Source: Candidatus Nanopelagicaceae bacterium
GTDB lineage: Bacteria > Actinomycetota > Actinomycetes > Nanopelagicales > Nanopelagicaceae
Assembly (NCBI GenBank): GCA_046091905.1
Contig: JBJTCN010000076.1
Span: forward strand, 2,597-66,596
Direction of reading: 5' to 3'
DNA: 64,000 bases
The position numbers and the translations under genes were made by a program. Under the pieces are notes generated by a model. It did not search any database and was not told the DNA's origin. It worked only from the letters and a program-made list of their open reading frames with translations. This document shows, one piece after another, positions 21,472 through 64,000 of the stretch. Every line of letters starts with the position of its first letter. Position 1 is the stretch's first letter.

Positions 21472-22164
21472 TTAATCTTTATACCCCCTCTTTGCTAGAA
21501 CGTGTTCGGCAATCGCCAAATCCTGCGGATAGGTAATCTTTACATTTGTCGGTTCGCCTGTCACGGAGTGCGTCTTAATTGATGGAAAGTATCTCTCAAT
21601 ACAGGCACCCGTGTCAGTACCGGTAAATGAATCTTCAGCAGCTTTCAAGTAAGCCGATAGTAGCTCTTTGGCAATAAAACCTTGCGGGGTTTGTACGCGA
21701 ACTACTGGCACGTTCTGTTTAATATCCATTTCAATTGGCTCAACAGTAATCGTCGGAATCGCACCGCCATGTGTAACTGCTTCGGTAGCAATCTCTTTAA
21801 ATAAAGTAGGAGTGGCAAGCGGACGAGCACCATCGTGAATAAGCACCACATCGATTTCGCCCGAATCGATTCCGCTTCGTAAATGTATTAGCGCCTGATA
21901 TTCAGATTCATGGCGGGTTGCACCACCATAAACAATCTCAACTTTTAATTGCGGTACTTCGCGAGCTAAAACTTCTTTAGCCATCGCTTCATCATCTGGG
22001 TGAATAACCAAGACCAGGCGCGCTTTGTTAAAAGGCTTTGCTGCATTAACAAGAGATCTACTAATAATTCGACGGCCAGATAGGGGTAGCCAAACCTTGT
22101 TGGTACTGTGGCCAAAACGGGAACCAGAACCGGCTGCTAAAACAACGACAGCTGTGCGTTTCAT
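21472..22164 (-). CDS. ispD: 2-C-methyl-D-erythritol 4-phosphate cytidylyltransferase IspD (intact motifs)
   Basis: VVVLAAGSGSRFGHSTNKVWLPL, IHDGARPL, RVQTPQGF and VKITYPQDL are all present. Confidence 0.85.
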   Translation of the reverse strand: MKRTAVVVLAAGSGSRFGHSTNKVWLPLSGRRIISRSLVNAAKPFNKARLVLVIHPDDEAMAKEVLAREVPQLKVEIVYGGATRHESEYQALIHLRSGIDSGEIDVVLIHDGARPLATPTLFKEIATEAVTHGGAIPTITVEPIEMDIKQNVPVVRVQTPQGFIAKELLSAYLKAAEDSFTGTDTGACIERYFPSIKTHSVTGEPTNVKITYPQDLAIAEHVLAKRGYKD

Positions 22165-22190: not shown

Positions 22191-22454
22191 ATGTGGCTTC
22201 CGAAGAGATTACGTAAGTCCACCGACCCTGTGGCAAAAGCTGCAGAGATAAAGGCTAAATTCGAGGCGAAGCGTAAACAACAGGGGTTATTTACTCCAGC
22301 ACAAGAAGCGTTGATGGATGAACTTGGTTTAAAGCCAGGAAGTAAAAAATCTGAATCGAAATCGAAACGTATTAAAAATACGAAAGCGCGCATTCCTCTG
22401 ACCGCGCGCCAACGTAAATTAGCTGAAGAACTTGGACTTATAAAGCCCGATTAA
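22191..22454 (+). CDS. Hypothetical small basic protein with an internal two-fold repeat
   Basis: 87 aa. Repeats LFTPAQEALMDELGLKP and LTARQRKLAEELGLIKP. It is the only + strand ORF inside the island, and coding status is uncertain. Confidence 0.35.
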   Translation: MWLPKRLRKSTDPVAKAAEIKAKFEAKRKQQGLFTPAQEALMDELGLKPGSKKSESKSKRIKNTKARIPLTARQRKLAEELGLIKPD

Positions 22455-22470
22455 GTTCGATTAATAACTC

Positions 22471-23763
22471 TTAGGCGTAGGTAAGTCCCATCGCATCTTG
22501 CTGGCGACGTAACTTCACGATTAATGAATCTTCATTTAGTTCAACATGATCGTAAGTTAATAGCTCGCCAGCTTTAATTGCTCTAACAATTGTGGCACCT
22601 TGAACCAAACCAATTGGTACCAAATTATCTCGCTTGGCATCCTTTGCAACATCTGCATAACCACGGACTGTGTATCCACCGATACCATCAATCTTGTCGC
22701 CAGGATTTAGTTCCTTCTTGGTCATACATACAACTTCTGCCATCAAACTTTCAGCATAAAGTGAAGATTCGCGATCGATAACAGCGCGTGCAACTGTCAT
22801 TGGAGCCTCTACCGACGCTAAGTGATATGGACGGTATAGCGCGAAATATGGACCAGGGCCCATTGAAAGGTATGACATTTCATGTGCAACATAAGGTGAA
22901 TCTGTTCGAACAATTACGAAAACACCTGGTGCTACATCGCCGGTGCAGTAATCAACTACACCTGGGCGATCTAAAACGCCGCCATCTGCTTGCAATGCGA
23001 AAGTCTCTTGCAGAGTTTTAACTGAAGAAGCCGGGCCATACATACCGCGCTTAGATAGCTCTAGCCCAGTGGTATTTGCCAGCGCTACCATCTCAGTCAT
23101 GGTCTTTGAACCATCAGTGAAAGAGCAGAGCATCTTCGGATTCATCTTCTTTGCATTTGCGCGATCACGTACCGTATCTGGATTGCTAAATGGTTCGAAG
23201 GGATTATTTTTACCTTTTCCAGCACAGACAATTTCAAAATTCAAATCTCTCGCAAAATCAACTAAAACTTTGGCCTCAACTGGTTCATCACCATGGCAGA
23301 CCGCATAGATTGCGCCGTTTTCGACCGCTTTCTTATTTAGCAATGGCCCAATAGTTACATCCATTTCCACGTTTAGCACAGCGATATCTTTCTTCGCCTC
23401 TAGCGCGCTATAGGTGATTTGCGCCCCGATATCCGGAACGCCAGTGCACTCAACAATAAAATCGATAGCTTCTAGGTCGCTAAGGAACTCGGTAGTGGTA
23501 GTTCCGGCTGATTTTCCTTCATTTAGAGCTTTTGCAATCTCTTTGGCGTCATTGCTGATGACTACATCAGAGACGCCAAGATCTTTAAATAGCTCAGTGA
23601 TGCGATTGGTATCAATATCAATAACTAAACGAACTGAAAGTCCTTGCATACGATGAACTTGGTTTCCAAAGCCACGCCCCATCTGACCCGCACCAACTAA
23701 GCCAATTCGAACGTCATGACCCAATTGTTTTGCGTGTTCTAATAATTTGTGACTGTATGCCAC
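22471..23763 (-). CDS. NAD(P)-dependent oxidoreductase of the COG4091 / SAF-domain family (DRL-like, 'predicted homoserine dehydrogenase')
   Basis: N-terminal Rossmann motif IGLVGAGQMGRG. 430 aa. The middle block GKGKNNP...DGSKTM.EM and the C-terminal SAF-like block (IKAGELLTY) are typical of the family that includes Brucella DRL. Family assignment is from motif recognition and no search was run. Confidence 0.6.
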   Translation of the reverse strand: MAYSHKLLEHAKQLGHDVRIGLVGAGQMGRGFGNQVHRMQGLSVRLVIDIDTNRITELFKDLGVSDVVISNDAKEIAKALNEGKSAGTTTTEFLSDLEAIDFIVECTGVPDIGAQITYSALEAKKDIAVLNVEMDVTIGPLLNKKAVENGAIYAVCHGDEPVEAKVLVDFARDLNFEIVCAGKGKNNPFEPFSNPDTVRDRANAKKMNPKMLCSFTDGSKTMTEMVALANTTGLELSKRGMYGPASSVKTLQETFALQADGGVLDRPGVVDYCTGDVAPGVFVIVRTDSPYVAHEMSYLSMGPGPYFALYRPYHLASVEAPMTVARAVIDRESSLYAESLMAEVVCMTKKELNPGDKIDGIGGYTVRGYADVAKDAKRDNLVPIGLVQGATIVRAIKAGELLTYDHVELNEDSLIVKLRRQQDAMGLTYA

Positions 23764-23793: not shown

Positions 23794-24159
23794 TTAGTTT
23801 CTTGCAATAATTTCGAACTTATCGCCAACATTAATTATTGGCATTGGTCGAGCTTCAATATTGGTATCACCAGGAAGCTCAGCTTCATTTAATCCATTTG
23901 CCTTTAAATCTAAGTGCCCCAAATTTAATAAATTTTCAGAAACAACCGAACCAACTGCAAGCACATTGAATTCTTCATTGTTAATTCGTATTAAATCGCC
24001 AACTAATGGAGCTCGTTGGCTAATTTCAACTTTGTGTAGTACCGAAAAGTCGTGAAGCTCTTCGGGAGCGCCTTCGCCAAAGAACACAAGAATTCCTTGA
24101 TCTCGAAAATCTGATACTAATTCTCCGACTGCGGTGACCGTAGTTGAATAAACGACCAT
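23794..24159 (-). CDS. srlB: PTS glucitol/sorbitol-family EIIA component
   Basis: 121 aa. FGEGAPEEL...AVGSVVSENLLNLGHLDLKANGLNEAELPG is colinear with E. coli SrlB. Confidence 0.85.
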   Translation of the reverse strand: MVVYSTTVTAVGELVSDFRDQGILVFFGEGAPEELHDFSVLHKVEISQRAPLVGDLIRINNEEFNVLAVGSVVSENLLNLGHLDLKANGLNEAELPGDTNIEARPMPIINVGDKFEIIARN

Positions 24160-24530
24160 TACGCCGGCTTGATGTTTTCGGGCTTTACTCCAGATACGAA
24201 GAGATCTTTGGTGATAAACATCGCAAGTGGCCCAGCAGGGCTAGCCGCGTGGATATCAACTGTAAGCACTTTCTTCATTGGATAAACACCGACGCGGGCA
24301 GTACCGCCGCAGTCAATAACTGCAACTGCAATCTCATCAAATGGCTTTGAAGATTTGAAACCATCGAATGGCTCGCCGCCAGTGGCATCTGCAATTGCTT
24401 GTGCCACCGGATGTATTCCACCACCTGTTACAGAATAAATATATTTCTTTTTATCGGTTGGCAGGACTTCAAGTGGGCCGCCCCAGCCACCTTTACCTGC
24501 TTCAATAATGACTTTTTTATAATTTCCCAT
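24159..24530 (-). CDS. srlE: PTS glucitol-family EIIB domain protein (equivalent to the N-terminal third of SrlE)
   Basis: GKGGWGGPLEV and AVAVIDCGGTARVGVYP (phospho-Cys motif). It has its own AGGAG RBS. Confidence 0.85.
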   Translation of the reverse strand: MGNYKKVIIEAGKGGWGGPLEVLPTDKKKYIYSVTGGGIHPVAQAIADATGGEPFDGFKSSKPFDEIAVAVIDCGGTARVGVYPMKKVLTVDIHAASPAGPLAMFITKDLFVSGVKPENIKPA

Positions 24531-24585
24531 TGTAACTCCTAGATATTTACCTTAGTAATTGAGTGAATCTTACGTACTAAGTAAT

Positions 24586-24621
24586 CGAGGGCCAAAGTGA
24601 ATTTCTCCACTCTGGCCCTCG
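24586..24621 (-). promoter_or_regulatory. Strong intra-operon hairpin between the EIIC2 and EIIB genes
   Basis: CGAGGGCCAAAGTG-(8 nt)-CACTCTGGCCCTCG, 13/14 bp paired. It starts 8 nt after the EIIC2 stop. No U-tract follows on the minus strand. Confidence 0.5.
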
Positions 24622-24629
24622 AATACTCT

Positions 24630-25178
24630 TTATTTACTTACGGAGTAAAGTCCAAAGCTTGCAAAGTAAGCAATTACTACTGAAAGCGGACCGGTTACCA
24701 AGCGGCTAAATAGAACCGCAGGCACACCAACTTCAACAGTCTCTGGTTCAGCTTCGCCAAGAGCGAGACCTACCGGAATAAAGTCGCAACCAACCTGTGG
24801 GTTGATTGCAAATAGTGCTGGTAATGCGTATTGGGCAGGAATATTTCCCTTGCCGATTTCCACACCAAGCAGAGTTCCAACGATCTGTGCAATAACAGCT
24901 CCTGGTCCAAGCAATGGAGATAGAACTGGAAGAGCACAAACGATTGAGATTAATAGCAAACCTGGAAGTGAAGAAGCGGAACCCTTGATTCCCTTTGCAA
25001 TCCAGTCGCCGACACCGGTTGTAAGAATTAAACCGATGATGAAAGAGATAAACGCCATAAATGGAATGACGTTACGAATTACTGTATCAACAGTGTCACG
25101 ACCAGCCTGATAGAGAGTTCCAACTACTCCACCAACGCTGCGGCCGATTCTTGTAAGAAATGCGCTAATGCCACCCAT
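24630..25178 (-). CDS. srlE: PTS glucitol-family EIIC2 membrane component (equivalent to the C-terminal part of SrlE)
   Basis: FLTRIGRSVGGVVGTLYQAGRDTVDTVIRNVIPFMAFISF resembles the SrlE membrane half. It has its own GGAGG RBS. Confidence 0.8.
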   Translation of the reverse strand: MGGISAFLTRIGRSVGGVVGTLYQAGRDTVDTVIRNVIPFMAFISFIIGLILTTGVGDWIAKGIKGSASSLPGLLLISIVCALPVLSPLLGPGAVIAQIVGTLLGVEIGKGNIPAQYALPALFAINPQVGCDFIPVGLALGEAEPETVEVGVPAVLFSRLVTGPLSVVIAYFASFGLYSVSK

Positions 25179-25182
25179 GTTC

Positions 25183-25779
25183 TTATGCCTCCTTCTTCGC
25201 CATCATGCGAGCGGTAATCCACTCAGTCACGATGCCGCGAATAAAGATAACTACTAGGCCAACAAGTAAGTAACGAACTGCTAGGTCTCCAAGACCTAAA
25301 CCAAGTTGCGTAATACCTGTTGCAATACCTACATACACGAACAATTCGCCTGGGTTTGCGTGAGGGAAAATTCCCAGGATTGGGTGAACGAATGAAACAG
25401 CAGAATCGTAGAAAGCTGGCTTGTAACGCTCTGGTAAGAAGCGTCCCATTGTGTATGCCATTGGGTTTGTTAATACGAATACCGCTACGAAAGGAAGAAT
25501 GATGTAACGAACTGGGTACCACTGGATACCTGGTCGCGCAGCAGCCTTACCTAAGTTTTCAATCTTCTCAGGTCCGATGATTCGAACGAGAGCGTTTACA
25601 GCAGTTAGCAGCACAACAAGAGTTGGAAGAATTCCGCCCATAAGTGAGAGCAGAACTGATCCACCTTTGTTGAAAACTTTAATAAAGTCTTCAGCTGCCG
25701 TAGCCAATGCGCCAAGTACGCCGGTTGGCTTATCAACGGTTACCTCCGCTAAGCGGTAACCAACTGATAGTAGGTTCAA
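25183..25779 (-). CDS. srlA: PTS glucitol-family EIIC1 component
   Basis: GRFLPERYKPAFY...FPHANPGELFVYVGIATG matches SrlA. TTG start with GGAGG 6 nt upstream. Confidence 0.85.
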   Translation of the reverse strand: MNLLSVGYRLAEVTVDKPTGVLGALATAAEDFIKVFNKGGSVLLSLMGGILPTLVVLLTAVNALVRIIGPEKIENLGKAAARPGIQWYPVRYIILPFVAVFVLTNPMAYTMGRFLPERYKPAFYDSAVSFVHPILGIFPHANPGELFVYVGIATGITQLGLGLGDLAVRYLLVGLVVIFIRGIVTEWITARMMAKKEA

Positions 25780-25860
25780 TGCACACCTCCTAAGTGTGTC
25801 GTGGGATCAATAAGTCAGTTACGACTTATTGGAAACAAACGCCCGTACGGTGATCGTTTG

Positions 25861-26277
25861 CTATTCCGCATCGTCAGATTTACTGCGATTAATATGAGCA
25901 TCGATATGTTCTGCCGCCATCCGTGTAGCGTCAGTTATCTTCTGCTTTCTATTCGCAGCAACTCGGTCGCCCGAGATTATTTCTTTGATGTGGAATCCTT
26001 TGTAATCAGTAAAGGGCTTACCTTTTGCCATTACTGTGATGCCGGTAAGTAGTAATCCATCGGAAACTACTCCGTTTTTATCTGCTAAAAGTGCAACATA
26101 TGAGCGACCACCGCGATAGCGCCTGCCACCTACTCCGATTGCGACAATACCGCCGTCGATGCTTTTACGAAGGTCTGCTAACTGTTTCTGAAAACGATTG
26201 GCTTGCCGCCAAGCTAGAAATAACTGGAAAGCCCAGGCAATACCTAGAACTGTAAATAGCGTACCTAGACCGCTCAT
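25861..26277 (-). CDS. gutM: GutM-like glucitol operon activator
   Basis: N-terminal TM segment plus AWRQANRFQK, and a GutM-like length if started at MSGLGTLF (ATG at 26275-26277, ATGA overlap with the sorC stop). The ORF-track start at 26328 is unlikely. Confidence 0.65.
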   Translation of the reverse strand: MSGLGTLFTVLGIAWAFQLFLAWRQANRFQKQLADLRKSIDGGIVAIGVGGRRYRGGRSYVALLADKNGVVSDGLLLTGITVMAKGKPFTDYKGFHIKEIISGDRVAANRKQKITDATRMAAEHIDAHINRSKSDDAE

Positions 26278-27272
26278 GCTGTTCGTGCCTCCGAGCCAGA
26301 TAAAAATTTCAAAATAGCATTTGCACAAGCCAAATCTAAAATTAATTGATCAACTAATTTGCTGCGAGCAGCTCCTACAACTCCAAGCACTTTATCTGCA
26401 CCTGTAGCCACACCAATTACCCGAGGAATTTTTCTAACTTCATCTAAAGAAAGCCCTATGACTCGGCTATCAATGGCAGTTGAAAGGATTTTGCCTTGCG
26501 CATTATAAAAACGCGCTGCGATATCACCTGCCATATTTCTAAAAATAGATTCACGTTCAGACTTGGGTAAGCCAAATTCCTCGACCAACATCTCAGAAGA
26601 TGTAGATCCTGCAGAGCCAATGCCTACCAGTGCAACGTCCGCTTTACGTGCCACATTTAAAACTCTAGTAACTGCTGGTTCGGCCATTAACGAATCGCGA
26701 GTTTTCTGTGAGCTCACTACAACTGGTGCGCTAAAAGGTATGAAATCTGCATTTAAGTTACGAGCAAGTGTGCGGCCTACTTCTTCAGCGCTTACCGATG
26801 TAATCACATTGGACATAGAGCCCATTAATTGAGTAACCTTCAAACCGGGAAGGCTATCTTTGCGACAATTAACTACAGTAGCTTCAAGACCGCGCCCCCA
26901 AGAAATCGCAATAGTTTGATTGGCCCTTAAACCTTTTTGCAATGTTTGCGCAGCGCTTCTACCTACGGCATTTAAAGCTAAGTCATTTCTATCAGGGGCG
27001 ATAACTTGTATTTCATCAATTCCAAGCTTTTCGATTAATTGTTGCGCTAGATAATCATGTCGAGATGTAGGCGCAATGATTCGAATTTCAACGTAACCTA
27101 AACGTTTCGCCGCGGTAAGCATTCTGGAGATATTTGAACGAGAAGTATTTAATTTAGAAGCAACTTGATCTTGTGAAAGCTCATCTTCGTAATAAAGGCG
27201 CGCGGCTTGCAAAATAAGCTCGGTTTCGCGCTGTTTCATCAAGATCCGATCTACCTGATCTACTTTGACCAA
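26274..27272 (-). CDS. SorC-family sugar-binding transcriptional regulator
   Basis: LQAARLYYEDELSQDQVASKLNTSRSNISRMLTAAKRLGYVEIRI HTH region, plus a sugar-phosphate binding domain. Confidence 0.85.
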   Translation of the reverse strand: MVKVDQVDRILMKQRETELILQAARLYYEDELSQDQVASKLNTSRSNISRMLTAAKRLGYVEIRIIAPTSRHDYLAQQLIEKLGIDEIQVIAPDRNDLALNAVGRSAAQTLQKGLRANQTIAISWGRGLEATVVNCRKDSLPGLKVTQLMGSMSNVITSVSAEEVGRTLARNLNADFIPFSAPVVVSSQKTRDSLMAEPAVTRVLNVARKADVALVGIGSAGSTSSEMLVEEFGLPKSERESIFRNMAGDIAARFYNAQGKILSTAIDSRVIGLSLDEVRKIPRVIGVATGADKVLGVVGAARSKLVDQLILDLACANAILKFLSGSEARTA

Positions 27273-27306: not shown

Positions 27307-27377
27307 GTGTGCTCCAGCACACAGTTGCGGTCAAGGACATTTGTGAGCGTTTTTGTGAATTACTGGCACGTACGTGC
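27307..27377. promoter_or_regulatory. Two perfect palindromes between the E2 stop and the sorC start
   Basis: GTGTGCT-CC-AGCACAC (27307-27322) and GCACGTACGTGC (27366-27377). Confidence 0.35.
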
Positions 27378-27380
27378 AGA

Positions 27381-28421
27381 TTAAATGTGGGCAATGAGGT
27401 GATCTAACAAGTTGGCTCCATCATAAAAATCAAGCGCTCGCAGGTCGATAGTCAGTGAAAGCGAGAGCGCGCCCTGCAAATCCACGCCGACATTTAGCGC
27501 CGTGCTTTGATTTGGAAAGAGCACTGGCCTATTGGATGCCATCTTGTAACTTGTTAAATCAAAGATGGTGGTGGTGGCGCCGTTTAACATTGCAAGTGGA
27601 ACTTTGCCATTCATAGCTTGTTCGGTAGTTGTTGCGACTAATTGGATCAGAGAAGTAAAATCCAATTGGTCTGGGTTTTTAAATACGGGAAGAGCACTTC
27701 CGTACTTTGATTCGATAATTAATGCGACACCAATATCCGTTAATCCGAAACCTCTTAAAGTCTTTGCCCAATTAGCTAGCAAGTTGGCATGCCACTCAGC
27801 TTGGCCTGCGGAGCGCTTCTGCACTGCGCGAGTAAATGAAGTCTGTGCAATGCCCAAGTTCATCTCAATGCCCTTGGCAATTAGAGCTTTATTGGCTTCT
27901 TTTCGAGCTGTGATTGCTGGGTCAATATTCGAATTTAAAACATCTTCGTAAGAGATTGTTTCAAATGGCCCCGTTGGATGAATAGTTTTCAGATCTATTC
28001 CCTTTTCCGTCGCTAGCTTTCTTGCAGCAGGTACGGATTTTGGGTTGTCATTTATAATTACAGAATCTGCTACTACAGGGGCAACTGGAGTCGCAACCAC
28101 AGGTGGAACCCCTGCCTCACTTGCATTGTCGTTGGGCTCGGACATATCGAAATCAAAACTCAAGATTTGAGATTGGGTCTCCATAATCAAAACGGGTTTA
28201 CCAATTTCCAACACTGCACCAGGTGCTGCAACCAGTTTTTCGACTATTCCATCAGCAGGAGCTTCGACTTCCATGTCAATCTTGTCGGTCATTACTTCAA
28301 AAAGCACGTCTCCAGCTTTCACTTCTTGTCCTTCAGAGACATGAAAACCAATTAATTCGCCGGTTTCCATAGTCATGCTCATCTTTGGCATCACAACTGT
28401 GTGCTTGAAACTCATCGCCAC
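27381..28421 (-). CDS. Lipoyl-domain E2-like protein with a shortened, motif-eroded acyltransferase core
   Basis: The lipoyl domain is intact ([17 protein letters not shown]) and a peripheral subunit-binding domain is present ([14 protein letters not shown]). The core has [10 protein letters not shown] where GGTFTISNLG is expected, and [10 protein letters not shown] where DHRxxDG is expected. Confidence 0.75.
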
Positions 28422-29410
28422 TGCCTAACAATTTCTACAGCAGCGGCGTAAATATCTTCAACTTGTGGTACCGCAGCTTTTTCAAGTTGTGGCGCGTAAG
28501 GAATTGGAATATTTAGACCAGCAAGTTTCTTAATAGGCGCTTTTAATGACCCAAAAACATGTGAACCTGCAACTTGGGCCACAATTTCATTGATAAAGCC
28601 ACCATGTGATGGACCTTCTTGGACGACCAATAAACGACCAGTAGAAGTTACTGAATCAAAAGTTGTCGTCATATCAAGCGGAGAAATAGTGCGCGGATCG
28701 ATAACAGTTAATTCGATACCTTCAGATGCGAGTTTCTCTGCTGCTTCGAGAGCTTTCATTACCATAATTCCGGTAGCGACTACAGTTAAATCTTTACCAG
28801 TACGAATTACTCGACTTACACCAAGTGGAATTCGGGTATTCCCTTCAGGCACAGCCTCCCAGCCAGGAGTTTTGTACAGCAATTTGTGTTCTAGGAAAAC
28901 AACTGGATTAGGATCATCAATTGCGGAAAGTAAAAGTCCTTTTGCATCTGAAGGATTTGATGGAACTACAACTTTTAATCCTGGAACATTGGTAAACCAA
29001 TTCTCAACAATCTGTGAATGTTGTGCCGCCGCACCGGTACCTGAACCTTGTGGAGCGCGGATAACCATCGGAACATGTAGCGCGCCACCTAACATAAAGT
29101 GAATTTTCGCCGCTTGGTTTGCAATTTGATCCATTGCTTGTGCAGAAAAGTCAGAGAATTGAATTTCTGCAATCGGGCGCATTCCAGAAAGTGCAGCACC
29201 TACCGCTGCTCCAATGTATCCAAGTTCAGAGATTGGTGTATCGATTACGCGATCTGCACCAAACTTTTCAAACATTCCAGCAGAGACACCAAATGCGCCG
29301 CCATAAATACCGACATCTTCGCCCATTAAAAACACTTCTGGACGTTCTTCCATGGCAATGGTCATTGCTTCACGAACAGCTTCTGCCATGGTCAACATGC
29401 GATCTGACAC
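28412..29410 (-). CDS. acoB: TPP-dependent 2-oxoacid/acetoin dehydrogenase E1 beta subunit
   Basis: MAEAVREAM...FLMGEDVG...VIDTPISE pattern. 10-nt overlap with the E2 gene. Confidence 0.8.
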
Positions 29411-30421
29411 TTACATTTTTCCAATCTGTGAATCCATGAATACCGCGGCTTCAAGACTGGCAGGATCTGACGCTTTTGCTTTAACTGATTCATTAACGGC
29501 CGCGATTATTTCATCAGTTGCTTGTTGTTGCACCGCATCCATCTCTTCCTGAGTTAAAAGGTTTTTCTCATGGAGTAGAGACATAAATTTTGCTATTGGT
29601 TCTTTAGTTTTCCACTCTTCAATTTCTTCTTTAGTGCGATAAAGATTTTTATCAGAACGAGAATGACCTTTCCAACGATAAGTCACACATTCAATTAATG
29701 TTGGGCCAGCACCGTTGCGGGCTGATTCAATAGCTCGTTCGGCTGCCTCGTAAACAGCAACTACGTCATTGCCATCAACTGTCACACCAGGAATTCCATA
29801 ACCAAGTCCGCGGTCTGCGAGATTTTCTAGCGCAAATGCTTTTTCAGTGGAATTAGACATTCCATATTTATTATTTTCACAGACAAAAACCACTGGTAAT
29901 TTCCAAATTGCGGCCATATTTGCAGCTTCATGAAAAGCACCTTCATTAAGAGCACCATCGCCGAAAAAAGAAACGGCGATTGTTTCTCTCTTCATCAATT
30001 TAGATGCAAGTGCCGCACCAGTTGCAATAGGAATTCCACCAGCCACAATTCCATTTGCGCCAAGATTGCCGGTTTCAACATCAGCAATATGCATAGAACC
30101 GCCGCGACCGCCGCAATAACCAATTTCTTTTCCTAGGAGCTCTGCAATCATGCGAGTGAGATCAGCACCTTTTGCGATGCAATGTCCGTGGCCGCGATGT
30201 GTTGAAGTAATTTGATCAGTAAGCTTAAGAGCCATACAGACTCCGGTAGGAGAGGCTTCTTGGCCAATTGATAAATGCATGGTTCCGTGCATCATTCCTC
30301 GACCAAACAAATCTTCAACAGCTTCTTCGAATTTTCGAATCTTCCACATGTAAAGAAGTGCATGTGATGCGTGCGCTTTAGAAGAGAGCGGGTGGCCAAT
30401 TAGTAAATTTTTTGTCGCCAT
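29411..30421 (-). CDS. acoA: TPP-dependent E1 alpha subunit, acetoin-dehydrogenase (AcoA) type
   Basis: HLSIGQEA, STHRGHGHCIAKG and GDGALNEGAFHEAANMAAIWKLPVVFVCENNKYGMS (TPP motif). The THRGHGHCIAKG block is characteristic of the AcoA clade, in my recollection. Confidence 0.75.
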   Translation of the reverse strand: MATKNLLIGHPLSSKAHASHALLYMWKIRKFEEAVEDLFGRGMMHGTMHLSIGQEASPTGVCMALKLTDQITSTHRGHGHCIAKGADLTRMIAELLGKEIGYCGGRGGSMHIADVETGNLGANGIVAGGIPIATGAALASKLMKRETIAVSFFGDGALNEGAFHEAANMAAIWKLPVVFVCENNKYGMSNSTEKAFALENLADRGLGYGIPGVTVDGNDVVAVYEAAERAIESARNGAGPTLIECVTYRWKGHSRSDKNLYRTKEEIEEWKTKEPIAKFMSLLHEKNLLTQEEMDAVQQQATDEIIAAVNESVKAKASDPASLEAAVFMDSQIGKM

Positions 30422-30499: not shown

Positions 30500-30778
30500 A
30501 TGAAGGAATTTCTCACAAAAGTAGGTTCTCCAGTGGGGCTACACGCCCGCCCAGCATCGCTATTTGCAAAGGCTGCTAAGGAATCTGGATGCAAAGTTTC
30601 ACTTGCCAAGATCTCTGAAGATGGCAGTGAATCTCCTTTTGTCGATGGTGTATCGTTATTAAAAATTATGGCGCTTGGAATTAAATGCGGCGAATCAATC
30701 AAAGTGCAAGTCGAAGGCGATAATGAAGAAACCGCAGCTGCGGCACTGCAAGCAATTGTTGAAAGCTCCGATCACTAA
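30500..30778 (+). CDS. ptsH: Phosphocarrier protein HPr
   Basis: Starting at the ATG at 30500 places GLHARPA with the His at residue 15. 92 aa. The longer GTG-initiated ORF from 30440 is not supported. Confidence 0.85.
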   Translation: MKEFLTKVGSPVGLHARPASLFAKAAKESGCKVSLAKISEDGSESPFVDGVSLLKIMALGIKCGESIKVQVEGDNEETAAAALQAIVESSDH

Positions 30779-60948: not shown

Positions 60949-63900
60949 TTAACGTGTAAACGCTTCCTGCATTAGAGCTTTCTGCTCATCTTCATGCAGG
61001 TGATGATTTCCAGTTGCCGGTGATGCAGTTGCGCGGCGCGATACTCGACGAAGTGCACGGCCACCAAATCCTGGACCACCAAATTGTTCTGAAGTACGTA
61101 GCGCAATAAATGACCATGGACCTTGGTTTGCTGGTTCATCTTGCACCCAAAGTAAATTCGCATTTGGATGCTTTGCCGCAATCTCTGCCATGTCTCTTGC
61201 CGGAAGTGGATAGAGCAGCTCTACGCGAACAATCGCAGTCGAGGTCTCTTGTAACTTCTCGCGCTCTGTAATTAAATCGTAGTAGACGCGACCAGAGCAG
61301 AAGATTACGCGAGATGCATTTACAACTGATGGATCATCAATAACTTTTTGGAAGCTACCATTTGTAAAGTCTTCAACTTTTGAAGTTGCAGCCTTTAGAC
61401 GAAGTAGCGATTTAGGCGAGAAATAAACCATTGGACGCTTTGCTGGATTCTTGATGTGCCAACGCATTACATGGAAGAACTGCGCTGGAGTAGTTGGTTG
61501 CACGATGGTCATATTCTGTTCTGCGCAAAGCTGTAAGTAACGTTCGATACGCGCTGAAGAGTGATCCGGGCCTTGACCTTCATAACCATGTGGCAGCGCC
61601 AAAACTACAGAGGAGCGCTCACCCCACTTCTGCAGCGCAGAAGAGACAAATTCATCGATGATGGTTTGAGCACCGTTAGCGAAATCGCCGAATTGGCCTT
61701 CCCAAATAACTAACGCCTCTGGGCGAATTGTTGAGTAGCCATACTCAAAGCCCATTGCTGCATATTCAGAGAGCAATGAATCCACTACGAAGAATTGTGA
61801 ATCATAATTTGTTAGCGCACGAAGCGGCGTCCACTCATTTCCGTTTTCGCGATCAATTACAACTGCATGGCGATGGCTAAATGTGCCACGACGTGCATCT
61901 TGACCTGCAATACGTACTGGATGCCCATCAATTAACAAAGATCCATAAGTAAGGATTTCGCCCATACCCCAATCAATAGTGCCATCTTTAATCATCTCAA
62001 CACGTTTTTGTAGCTGTGGCAATAACTTTTGATGAACTGTAAATCCTTCCGGAATCGCAATTTGAGTTTCTGCAATCTTTTCAATTACCAACTTGCTAAC
62101 CGCAGTGGCATTATCTTGTGGCTCTGCAGTCGATGGGATCTTCCATTCTGGAGATTCAGGTTCAACGTTATGCACTGCAGCATAAATAGATTCAAGTTCT
62201 GCATGGAACTCTTTTGAAATCTGATCGTTTTCGTCAGCCGTGATATCGCCGCGACCTACGAGCGCCTCTGCATAAAGTGCACGAGTGGTGCGCTTTGCGT
62301 CAATTAACTTATACATCTGTGGTTGAGTGAAACTTGGCTCGTCACCTTCATTATGGCCACGACGGCGGTAGCAAACTAAATCAATCACGACATCTTTATT
62401 GAATGTTTGGCGATATTCAAAGGCCCAACGCGCAACGCGAACGCAAGCTTCAGGATCATCACCATTTACATGAAAGACCGGCGCATTAATCATCTTGGCA
62501 ATATCAGTTGAATAACGCGCAGAGCGAGAAGCATGTGGTGAGGTAGTAAAACCAACTTGGTTATTAACCACGATATGAACGGTGCCTCCAGTGCGATAAC
62601 CACTTAACTGGCCCATCTGCAAGGTTTCCATATTTACGCCTTGACCAGCAAAAGAGGCATCTCCGTGTAGCAAAATTGGCATCACGTTATATGCATTCTT
62701 CACATTTAGCTTGTCCTGCTTTGCGCGAACAATGCCTTCGAGTACTGGGTTAACTGCTTCTAAATGTGAAGGGTTTGCTGCTAAATAAATCTTGGTCGTT
62801 GCACCATTTGCAGCGGTGAACACACCTTCGGTACCTAAGTGATACTTAACATCGCCAGAACCTTGAACTTGATTCTCTTGGTAATGGCCTTCGAACTCTT
62901 GGAAAATCTGGCCATGTGGTTTGCCAGCGATATTTGCCAGAACATTTAAACGACCACGGTGTGGCATACCGATGCAAACTTCTTCAAGTTTTTGATCAGC
63001 CGCATTGCCGATTAACGCATCCAACAGGGGAATTACCGCTTCGCCACCTTCAAGTGAGAAGCGCTTCTGTCCCACGAATTTTGTTTGCAAGAAAGTTTCA
63101 AATGCTTCAGCGCTATTTAATTTGCGCAATACATGAATCTGTTCTTCTTTAGGTAACTTCGGCGCGCCAACTTCTACCATTTTCTGAATAAAGTTGCGTT
63201 CAACCGGATCGTCAATAAACATGTATTCAATACCGATGGTGCGGCAATATGAGTTGCGCAAAATTCCCAAAATATCGCGCAGCTTCATGAAATCTTTGCC
63301 GCCAAAACCTGCGGTAGGGAAGGTGCGATCCAAATCCCATAGTGATAATCCATGTGATTCCACATCAAGATCTGGATGTGAACGCATCACGAATTCAAGT
63401 GGATCAACATCAGCCATCAAGTGACCGCTCACGCGATATGCATTAATTAGTTCAAGAACGCGCTCTGATTTTGCAACTAAATCTTCTTCCGGCGCGACAT
63501 CAGTTGCCCAACGAATTGGAACATAAGGAATACGTAGCGCGCTAAATACAGAGTCATAGAAGGCATCAGATAACAACAATTCGTGAATGCGCTTTAGGAA
63601 ATCTCCAGAAGTTGCACCTTGAATAATGCGGTGATCGTAGGTAGAGGTAAGTGTTACAACCTTGCTAATACCGAGCTTGTTTAAAGTCTCTTCACTTGAT
63701 CCCTGGAATTCTGCTGGGTAATCCATTGCGCCAACACCAAGAATCAAACCTTGGCCTTGCACCAAGCGTGGGACTGAGTGAACAGTTCCGATGGTTCCAG
63801 GGTTGGTTAACGAAACAGTTGTGCCTGCGAAATCTTCAACAGTCAGTGCACCATTTCTCGCCTTCTTCACTGTTGCTTCATAAGCTGCCCAGAACTGACC

Positions 63901-64000
63901 GAAATCCATTGCTTCGCAGCCCTTAATTGATGGCACTAGCAACTGACGTGAGCCATCATCTTTTGCTAAATCAATTGCGATACCCAAATTGATATGTTCT
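60949..64000 (-). CDS. kgd: Multifunctional 2-oxoglutarate dehydrogenase/decarboxylase E1 (Kgd/OdhA type with a fused E2-like acyltransferase domain); N-terminus lies outside the window
   Basis: E2-like segment ending in STYDHRIIQGA, followed by the SucA E1 domains. The frame is open to the window edge. Confidence 0.9.
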   Translation of the reverse strand, partial: EHINLGIAIDLAKDDGSRQLLVPSIKGCEAMDFGQFWAAYEATVKKARNGALTVEDFAGTTVSLTNPGTIGTVHSVPRLVQGQGLILGVGAMDYPAEFQGSSEETLNKLGISKVVTLTSTYDHRIIQGATSGDFLKRIHELLLSDAFYDSVFSALRIPYVPIRWATDVAPEEDLVAKSERVLELINAYRVSGHLMADVDPLEFVMRSHPDLDVESHGLSLWDLDRTFPTAGFGGKDFMKLRDILGILRNSYCRTIGIEYMFIDDPVERNFIQKMVEVGAPKLPKEEQIHVLRKLNSAEAFETFLQTKFVGQKRFSLEGGEAVIPLLDALIGNAADQKLEEVCIGMPHRGRLNVLANIAGKPHGQIFQEFEGHYQENQVQGSGDVKYHLGTEGVFTAANGATTKIYLAANPSHLEAVNPVLEGIVRAKQDKLNVKNAYNVMPILLHGDASFAGQGVNMETLQMGQLSGYRTGGTVHIVVNNQVGFTTSPHASRSARYSTDIAKMINAPVFHVNGDDPEACVRVARWAFEYRQTFNKDVVIDLVCYRRRGHNEGDEPSFTQPQMYKLIDAKRTTRALYAEALVGRGDITADENDQISKEFHAELESIYAAVHNVEPESPEWKIPSTAEPQDNATAVSKLVIEKIAETQIAIPEGFTVHQKLLPQLQKRVEMIKDGTIDWGMGEILTYGSLLIDGHPVRIAGQDARRGTFSHRHAVVIDRENGNEWTPLRALTNYDSQFFVVDSLLSEYAAMGFEYGYSTIRPEALVIWEGQFGDFANGAQTIIDEFVSSALQKWGERSSVVLALPHGYEGQGPDHSSARIERYLQLCAEQNMTIVQPTTPAQFFHVMRWHIKNPAKRPMVYFSPKSLLRLKAATSKVEDFTNGSFQKVIDDPSVVNASRVIFCSGRVYYDLITEREKLQETSTAIVRVELLYPLPARDMAEIAAKHPNANLLWVQDEPANQGPWSFIALRTSEQFGGPGFGGRALRRVSRRATASPATGNHHLHEDEQKALMQEAFTR

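Follow-up and report, generated by a model that had tools for sequence, protein, structure and literature searches.

What can a bacterium gain from an E2 component in which the lipoyl arm and the docking domain are retained but the means of transferring an acyl group appears to be lost? The question is raised by a minus-strand gene, here called E2', in a stretch of 64,000 nucleotides (nt) from a Candidatus Nanopelagicaceae bacterium (assembly GCA_046091905.1, contig JBJTCN010000076.1, positions 2,597 to 66,596 of the forward strand), hereafter the window. An earlier note, made from the sequence of the window, had proposed that the acyltransferase centre of this protein is dead. The centre does look dead: neither of the catalytic residues remains, and the core is trimmed. 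The altered protein was found to be maintained by selection and encoded in a conserved gene module, and we tentatively read it as a non-catalytic lipoyl carrier and dock.

Anatomy of E2'

The open reading frame (ORF) at 27381-28421 (-) was confirmed as real. Homologues begin with MSFKH, so the start of E2' was placed at the ATG at 28413-28415. This start codon overlaps the stop codon of the E1 beta gene as ATGA, which implies translational coupling. The parts of the gene are:

27384..28415 (-), E2' coding sequence, 344 amino acids (aa), stop codon at 27381-27383; E2 paralogue predicted to be catalytically disabled
28185..28400 (-), lipoyl domain (Pfam PF00364 Biotin_lipoyl, residues 8-79, 56.3 bits)
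28038..28184 (-), Ala/Pro/Val-rich linker, of variable length in the family alignment
27936..28037 (-), peripheral subunit-binding domain (PSBD), the E1/E3 dock (PF02817 E3_binding, residues 129-162, 39.3 bits against a cut-off of 23.7)
27384..27935 (-), trimmed CAT-like core of about 184 aa without the catalytic residues (PF00198)
27552..27581 (-), block at the position of GGTFTxSNLG, catalytic Ser replaced by Phe (alignments, translation checked)
27414..27449 (-), block at the position of xDHRxxDGAxAA, catalytic His replaced by Leu and Gly by Phe (alignments, translation checked)

The lipoyl domain and the PSBD were canonical, as the earlier note had described them. The lipoyl domain was nearly invariant overall and its TDK was invariant across the family; the codon of the lipoyl-lysine, K45, lies at 28281-28283 in the motif TDKIDME (translation checked). 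The match of the core to PF00198 (2-oxoacid_dh) was weak and partial (32.6 bits, cut-off 23; residues 169-314 on positions 41-180 of the 232-position profile). All curated NCBIfam E2 models fell far under their cut-offs, the best being TIGR01349 with 91.8 bits against 445, and matching the family profile to PDB sequences gave no better result for the core.

Loss of the catalytic centre

The catalytic motifs were called from three concordant independent alignments, one by HMMER against PDB chains and two by MAFFT with intact E2s. Compared with GGTFT(I/V)SNLG, the Ser block of E2' has Phe in place of Ser, in the HMMER and the MAFFT alignments alike, and Asp in place of Asn. The segment IDLRALDF aligned on xDHRxxDG, so that His is replaced by Leu (giving DLR) and the Gly of DG by Phe; the replacement of this block stood as first proposed, whereas the alignment did not require an insertion. 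Between the two blocks, before the His strand, a hairpin of 12-17 residues is deleted, in agreement with the 13 or so residues first estimated by eye. The core, put at about 185 aa in the earlier note, proved to have more deletions than were listed there: its N-terminal half lacks two segments of about 20 and 16 residues, and both the inner linker and the tail 'ENPxxLL' at the C-terminus are absent. A conserved His, which would have argued for a working centre elsewhere in the core, was sought anywhere in the core across the family alignments and none was found; an alternative catalytic His is thereby ruled out. The core has thus lost both residues used for passing acetyl to coenzyme A (CoA) and, judged from its sequence, probably the transfer itself.

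Conservation, selection and fold

Database searches returned 931 relatives of E2'. Among the matches listed, identity ranged from 61 to 100% and length from 338 to 375 aa, except for one protein of 319 aa; some were labelled by source as Actinomycetota or Actinomycetales proteins from metagenome-assembled genomes (MAGs). When the core by itself was searched exhaustively with HMMER, only eight representative clusters were found at E ≤ 1e-10, followed by the scores of ordinary E2s. The Ser-to-Phe and His-to-Leu changes, which the earlier note had suggested looking for in relatives, did not vary among the 17 aligned members of the family, which extends across Planktophila/Nanopelagicales, and they were also seen in remote members, where sequences of 45-47% identity have (F/L)D and DLR. 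Three blocks were invariant in the family alignment (n = 17), one of them GKVPL.ML.GATTT.FDLT, and length and motifs were consistent across four genera. Ratios of dN/dS, calculated by the Nei-Gojobori method between E2' and three relatives, were 0.006-0.02 in the lipoyl domain, 0.03-0.05 in the PSBD, 0.08-0.16 in the core and 0.12-0.29 in the linker.

AlphaFold2 (AF2) gave an unusable model from the 17-member family alignment alone (pLDDT 58.9), and an alignment to which intact E2s of the same module had been added was used instead. The second model, covering PSBD and core, had a pLDDT of 90.3 and a pTM of 0.77. With Foldseek it matched E2 cores including 1B5S, 6ZZM, 3MAE, 4N72 and 1EAA (probability 1.0, E ~1e-12, identity 14-19%, TM 0.6-0.68), which was the outcome of the structure prediction that the earlier note had recommended. 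Judged by this model, the core is predicted to be a trimmed yet folded E2 domain, and it is under purifying selection.

A functionless pseudo-domain, or an assembly artefact, could also give the weak match to the E2-core profile and the long acI stem in the E2-core tree (2.04 substitutions per site, against 0.39 for E1 beta); in that tree E2' was placed with module E2s of Nanopelagicales, Streptomyces and Pseudonocardiales, subject to a long-branch caveat. Inside the family the core is once more under tight selection. Because the motifs are invariant, the core is under purifying selection and the core models as an E2 fold, E2' represents a fixed state and not decay. Relics would not be expected to show a core dN/dS of 0.08-0.16, the same length and motifs throughout the family (among the matches listed) and in four genera, and a confident AF2 core model, and we regard decay as highly improbable. 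The reading of E2' as a pseudogene was ruled out by dN/dS and family conservation.

The gene block around E2'

The minus-strand block consists, in order, of E1 alpha, E1 beta, E2', SorC, GutM, a glucitol-type phosphotransferase system (PTS; IIC1, IIC2, IIB and IIA), DRL and an IspD-type gene, and HPr-ispF-cysS-rlmB runs divergently from E1 alpha. The features are:

30500..30778 (+), HPr, divergent from E1 alpha, with ispF-cysS after it
29411..30421 (-), E1 alpha of the alpha2beta2 type of pyruvate dehydrogenase (PDH) and acetoin dehydrogenase, with the GDG...NN motif for thiamine pyrophosphate (TPP) and the GHS His kept
28412..29410 (-), E1 beta
27307-27322, 16-nt perfect palindrome GTGTGCTGGAGCACAC in the 108-nt gap between E2' and sorC, upstream of sorC; candidate operator
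26274..27272 (-), SorC-family regulator
23794..26328 (-), GutM and glucitol-type PTS (Pfam)
25183-25779 (-), PTS IIC1
24630-25178 (-), PTS IIC2
24159-24530 (-), PTS IIB
23794-24159 (-), PTS IIA
22471..23763 (-), DRL, a DXR-II-type oxidoreductase with a SAF domain (PF21135, 210 bits)
21472..22164 (-), the block's IspD-type cytidylyltransferase (TIGR00453, 142.8 bits, under the curated cut-off of 181.3)

A terminator-like site was sought in the 108-nt gap between E2' and sorC, and none was found. Full synteny of the block held in relatives with E2' identities as low as 43%, and its IspD-type gene was syntenic in every relative examined. Many relatives carry the gene for PTS Enzyme I within the E1/E2' operon, where it separates E2' from SorC (L012:10301-12001; L014:12778-14472), and the Enzyme I of the window's own genome lies on another contig (C29:604-2265). 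An E2 gene directly after E1 alpha and E1 beta, by a glucitol-type PTS, SorC and DRL, was found in the window, in its relatives and in other phyla, and this arrangement is referred to below as the module. Ordinary sorbitol catabolism was rejected as its role: the operon has no sorbitol-6-phosphate dehydrogenase, DRL is complementary to Dxr in its distribution, and IspD and IspF are co-located.

The module in other organisms and the state of its E2

The combination of gut-type PTS, DRL (DXR-II), E1 alpha/beta and E2 is a widespread, conserved and undescribed module. It was seen in many Actinomycetota, Chloroflexota, Spirochaetota and Bacillota, often with lpdA adjacent. On a Priestia plasmid it consists of E1 alpha/beta, a 451-aa E2 and LpdA; on an Agrobacterium plasmid an ABC transporter and a PfkB kinase stand in place of the PTS, followed by DRL, E1 alpha/beta, E2, LpdA and LipA. 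Most carriers outside the acI lineage also have canonical Dxs and Dxr. Sediminivirga luteola (L097), Terrimesophilobacter mesophilus (L102) and an Alkalispirochaeta MAG (L103) have 3-hydroxy-3-methylglutaryl-CoA (HMG-CoA) reductase and lack IspG, Dxs and Dxr. All three have gut-PTS and DRL, and E1 alpha/beta and E2 stand beside DRL only in Sediminivirga and Terrimesophilobacter. Since these organisms use the mevalonate route and have no IspG, their DRL cannot be an enzyme of isoprenoid synthesis, and the module there is not for isoprenoid synthesis and must be catabolic. On a Ligilactobacillus salivarius plasmid (NZ_CP101686; L024), fructose-6-phosphate aldolase and transketolase take the place of E1 alpha/beta-E2 after DRL, gut PTS, GutM and SorC, which may be an alternative split of the same intermediate.

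Among about 50 module E2s surveyed, nearly all kept the catalytic Ser, and the His was kept apart from Kineosporia and the acI family. The altered centres were:

Streptomyces module E2, Ser to His or Tyr, His kept
Actinomycetota MAG L063 module E2, Ser to Thr, His kept
Nanopelagicales MAG L065 module E2, Ser to Ala, His kept; region of the pre-DHR hairpin much shorter than in intact E2s
Kineosporia module E2, Ser lost, His lost; very long branch
acI family E2', Ser to Phe, His to Leu

The Asn after the Ser position was replaced by Asp in acI and in the exceptions that keep His. From these motifs, the centre of the module E2 appears to have been weakened repeatedly, and only in Actinomycetota. 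Thirteen of the 17 actinobacterial modules examined had no adjacent lpd, which suggests that their E3 is already borrowed. In Kineosporia sp. R_H_3 (E2 at L083:4501-5781) the SNLG and DHR motifs were lost independently, and the genome has both Dxs and Dxr.

The series of module E2s with His, Tyr or Ala at the Ser position and an intact His suggests a gradual change of chemistry, and E2' could accordingly be thought of as an acyl- or other transferase working with other residues; the candidates are the Asp and Tyr of FDLT and LDFYDG, or ESKYG. The remodelled blocks, invariant and under purifying selection, would fit such a catalyst. No core His is conserved, however; the replacements (Phe, Leu, Phe) are bulky and hydrophobic and would occupy the channel instead of lining it; five elements of the structure are missing; and every NCBIfam E2 model scored far below its cut-off (e.g., 91.8 against 445). 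With this balance of evidence, we consider catalysis by other residues unlikely.

Loss of dxs and the methylerythritol phosphate pathway

The window's own genome (~1.33 Mb, 92% complete) was searched with hidden Markov models for Dxr and Dxs, and neither was found. The best matches to 'dxs' were the block's E1 beta and E1 alpha (top score 63.6 bits against a cut-off of 466). IspG was present, and HMG-CoA reductase was not found in this genome.

As the best DXS-like sequences of a genome without dxs, E1 alpha and E1 beta might form a carboligase that acts alone, either DXS-like (joining pyruvate and glyceraldehyde 3-phosphate, GAP, to 1-deoxy-D-xylulose 5-phosphate, hereafter DXP) or as a DXP lyase. 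The main flux would then bypass lipoate, and E2' would scaffold or regulate E1 through its PSBD. Synthesis of deoxyxylulose by PDH E1, with pyruvate and glyceraldehyde as substrates, has been reported (PMC3424233). The conserved PSBD agrees with a scaffolding role. However, no part of E2' is as strongly conserved as its lipoyl domain (dN/dS 0.006-0.02; K45 invariant), which is hard to explain if lipoate is unused, and E1 alpha has kept the GHS motif, the His of which is presumably the residue acting in lipoyl acetylation. A carboligase independent of lipoate is therefore doubtful in our view.

Counts across the order covered 121 genomes. Dxr was present in 93 and DRL in 28, with near-perfect complementarity (Fisher test, P = 1e-24): DRL was present in 27 of the 28 genomes without Dxr. 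One genome (G100) has both, and in another (G099) E2' was present and DRL was not detected, which a fragmented assembly (~40 contigs) may explain. Dxs was absent from nine of the 121 genomes. Eight of these nine carry E2', three of the eight being complete genomes on a single contig; the remaining one, a MAG of 94% completeness, has Dxr. Thus, Dxs was lacking in 8 of 15 E2' carriers and in 1 of 106 non-carriers (Fisher test, P = 6e-8), an association that is confounded by shared ancestry. Strict coupling between a dead E2 and the loss of dxs was rejected, because genomes of genus g4 and Kineosporia combine a dead E2 with Dxs.

In two relatives (L015 and L016) the locus reads IspD-DRL-Dxs / IspF-CysS, and in the window type (and in L012) it reads IspD-DRL-[PTS, SorC, E2', E1 beta, E1 alpha] / HPr-IspF-CysS. 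This comparison places the block in the slot of dxs; if the block replaces dxs, the fate of the C2 unit must be an unusual one. In each of the ten dxs-less genomes tested from the lineage, IspG was kept and HMG-CoA reductase was lacking. With IspG kept and no mevalonate route, dxs-less genomes need DXP or 2-C-methylerythritol 4-phosphate (MEP) and have no canonical way to make either. The three fates of the C2 unit that the earlier note had listed, namely hand-off to another transferase, carboligation and a structural role, are still live alternatives, and they are sharpened by the fact that the partner E1 belongs to a module of DRL and the MEP pathway at the dxs position of relatives.

A proposed role for E2'

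DRL interconverts DXP and MEP. In Salmonella, methylerythritol is reportedly carried by the sorbitol PTS (Testa 2004, as cited in PMC3994034). Given the DRL reaction, the complementarity of DRL and Dxr, and transport of methylerythritol on a sorbitol PTS, the most economical route is methylerythritol to MEP to DXP, and from there, by a cleavage like that of acetoin dehydrogenase, to GAP and acetyl-lipoyl. Imported 2-C-methylerythritol would be phosphorylated to MEP, DRL would exchange MEP for DXP, and E1 alpha/beta would split (or form) DXP, its probable substrate, with GAP and an acetyl group on the lipoyl arm as the products. E2' would dock E1 alpha/beta and Lpd through its PSBD, and its core would presumably serve oligomerisation or assembly only. 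The acetyl-dihydrolipoyl arm may then be discharged in trans (or loaded, in reverse) at the DlaT/SucB-type E2 or at the E2-like domain of OdhA, and the sole Lpd candidate detected in the genome would re-oxidise it. In short, E2' would be a non-catalytic lipoyl carrier and dock, similar to E3BP, with its acetyl group handled in trans by a housekeeping E2. This is the reading that we prefer, although we would put it at somewhat short of an even chance.

The own genome contains AceE, Lpd, LipA and LipB, together with one intact DlaT/SucB-type E2 with two lipoyl domains. An OdhA-type gene for a fused E2-like/E1o protein of 1251 aa (60949-64000) leaves the window at its end (ORF to C76:67300), and its E2-like domain keeps TSLTNPG and DHR. 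In Corynebacterium the transferase domain of OdhA acts on lipoyl domains borne by AceF (PMC10415282, PMC7568260), so the servicing of a lipoyl arm in trans is established in the phylum.

Several points weigh against a carrier and dock serviced in trans. It supposes that a foreign lipoyl domain would be accepted by DlaT or OdhA. Where the active-site channel used to be, the E2' core has conserved blocks with invariant residues that are new (F, D, L, F, Y, D), and these could mean a new function and not a mere scaffold. The module E2 is intact in other Actinomycetota that have the same housekeeping complexes. The PSBD of E2' apparently does not conserve the third Arg of the B. stearothermophilus type. 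Finally, a purely catabolic complex supplies the dxs-less genomes only by salvage of methylerythritol or by reversal.

Reversal is plausible in energetic terms. The E1 step releases no CO2, and the reaction DXP + CoA + NAD+ to GAP + acetyl-CoA + NADH is, by a rough estimate, near equilibrium, so the same machinery could run backwards. In acI/Planktophila genomes without DXS and DXR, it is conceivable that DXP is made by E1 alpha/beta running in this direction with the help of lipoate. AceE or E1 alpha/beta would load the lipoyl arm from pyruvate, and E1 alpha/beta, with its non-decarboxylating half-reaction reversed, would join acetyl-dihydrolipoyl and GAP to give DXP and oxidised lipoyl. E2' would be an insulated acetyl carrier whose dead core stops the leak of acetyl to CoA, and DRL would continue to MEP, replacing DXS and DXR together. 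This proposal gives a reason why the death of the transferase could be advantageous, and it is the best account of dxs loss that does not invoke auxotrophy. It is consistent with the position of the block in the dxs slot, between DRL and ispF, with the excess of dxs-less genomes among E2' carriers, and with the retention of IspG and lack of HMG-CoA reductase in the ten genomes tested. The dxs-less genomes all retain DRL, E1 alpha/beta and E2' under strong selection, and in Escherichia coli point mutants of aceE, isolated as suppressors of dxs, can stand in for dxs, which shows that a PDH-type E1 can supply DXP (PMC3424233). On the other hand, the dead core predates the loss of dxs, as genus g4 and Kineosporia with their dead E2 and Dxs indicate, and one dxs-less Nanopelagicales MAG keeps the E2 His. 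The PTS genes are strongly conserved in dxs-less genomes, so uptake still matters there; direct carboligation would not need lipoate; and the association with dxs may reflect lineage (genome streamlining) rather than mechanism. We consider DXP synthesis through an insulated carrier to be an unlikely role for E2', though one with a real share of the probability.

Comparison with known systems

For E2' as a carrier and dock, the closest known protein is E3BP, or protein X (e.g., PDB 6H60, 1ZY8, and chain C of 8OHS), which like E2' has a lipoyl domain, a subunit-binding domain and an E2-homologous core without the catalytic His. It is a non-catalytic adaptor, the role proposed here for E2', and E3BP chains appeared among the sequence and fold matches of E2'. 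The two are not related by descent, however, as E2' groups with actinobacterial module E2s. E2' is also the only E2-like gene of its operon, not being encoded beside an active E2, and its core is trimmed further than that of E3BP; its integration into another E2 core is only hypothetical. The known dead E2 with a lipoyl arm, E3BP, is eukaryotic, and in the proposed reading E2' would be its bacterial functional analogue.

The canonical bacterial E2 cores (Geobacillus stearothermophilus E2p, 1B5S; Corynebacterium glutamicum AceF, 6ZZI; Azotobacter vinelandii E2p, 1EAA/1DPB) share domain order and core fold with E2' and differ from it in the three substitutions (Ser to Phe, His to Leu, Gly to Phe) and in the deleted hairpin, two N-terminal segments, inner linker and C-terminal tail. 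The actinobacterial hybrid complex of PDH and 2-oxoglutarate dehydrogenase (OdhA with AceF/DlaT and Lpd) is a precedent for a transferase that serves the lipoyl domain of another protein (PMC10415282, PMC7568260), and it is the mirror image of the present case: OdhA is catalytic without a lipoyl domain, whereas E2' has the lipoyl domain without catalysis.

Acetoin dehydrogenase (AcoA/AcoB/AcoC) has an alpha2beta2 E1 that acts on a methyl-ketol and not on a 2-oxo acid, and DXP is a phosphorylated sugar analogue of acetoin. Its operon has the same order of E1 alpha, E1 beta and E2 as the block. AcoC is catalytically active (of CAT or alpha/beta-hydrolase type), unlike E2', which matched the AcoC model NF011457 in the lipoyl region only (82.9 bits against a cut-off of 307), and the partners PTS, DRL and IspD also set E2' apart from acetoin dehydrogenase. 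DXS and the block's E1 are both TPP enzymes generating hydroxyethyl-TPP. The block's E1 differs from DXS in that it shows no orthology, is heterotetrameric and has a lipoyl partner.

Literature searches turned up neither a dead bacterial E2 with its lipoyl arm retained nor any account of methylerythritol catabolism or of the module in acI. Selection has fixed E2' in a group that ranks among the most abundant freshwater bacteria, and the protein indicates that a lipoyl carrier need not be coupled to a transferase of its own. For the dxs-less bacteria the consequence would be either dependence on scavenged methylerythritol, which is a new auxotrophy, or an undescribed lipoate-linked route to DXP. 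If the insulated carrier is real, it would be a third and previously unknown entry to isoprenoid, and possibly thiamine, precursors and would supply a selective reason for the loss of the transferase. The module also helps to explain the scattered distribution of DXR-II, and the annotation 'pyruvate dehydrogenase E1/E2' is probably wrong in these genomes.

Minor features of the locus

The PTS of the window carries a split SrlE-type EIIBC (24159-25178) in which the halves are swapped, the membrane part IIC2 (24630-25178) coming before IIB (24159-24530). The IIC2-before-IIB order was common to acI, Nocardioides, Klenkia and some Chloroflexota modules, and the modules of Streptomyces and Microbacteriaceae retained the order IIB-IIC2. 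Besides the block's IspD, a second IspD-like gene adjoins carD in relatives (L004:17272-17952; L007:17389-18030). Between DRL and the block's IspD, an ORF of 87 aa lies on the opposite strand at 22191-22454 (+) and was found in relatives at 43-88% identity.

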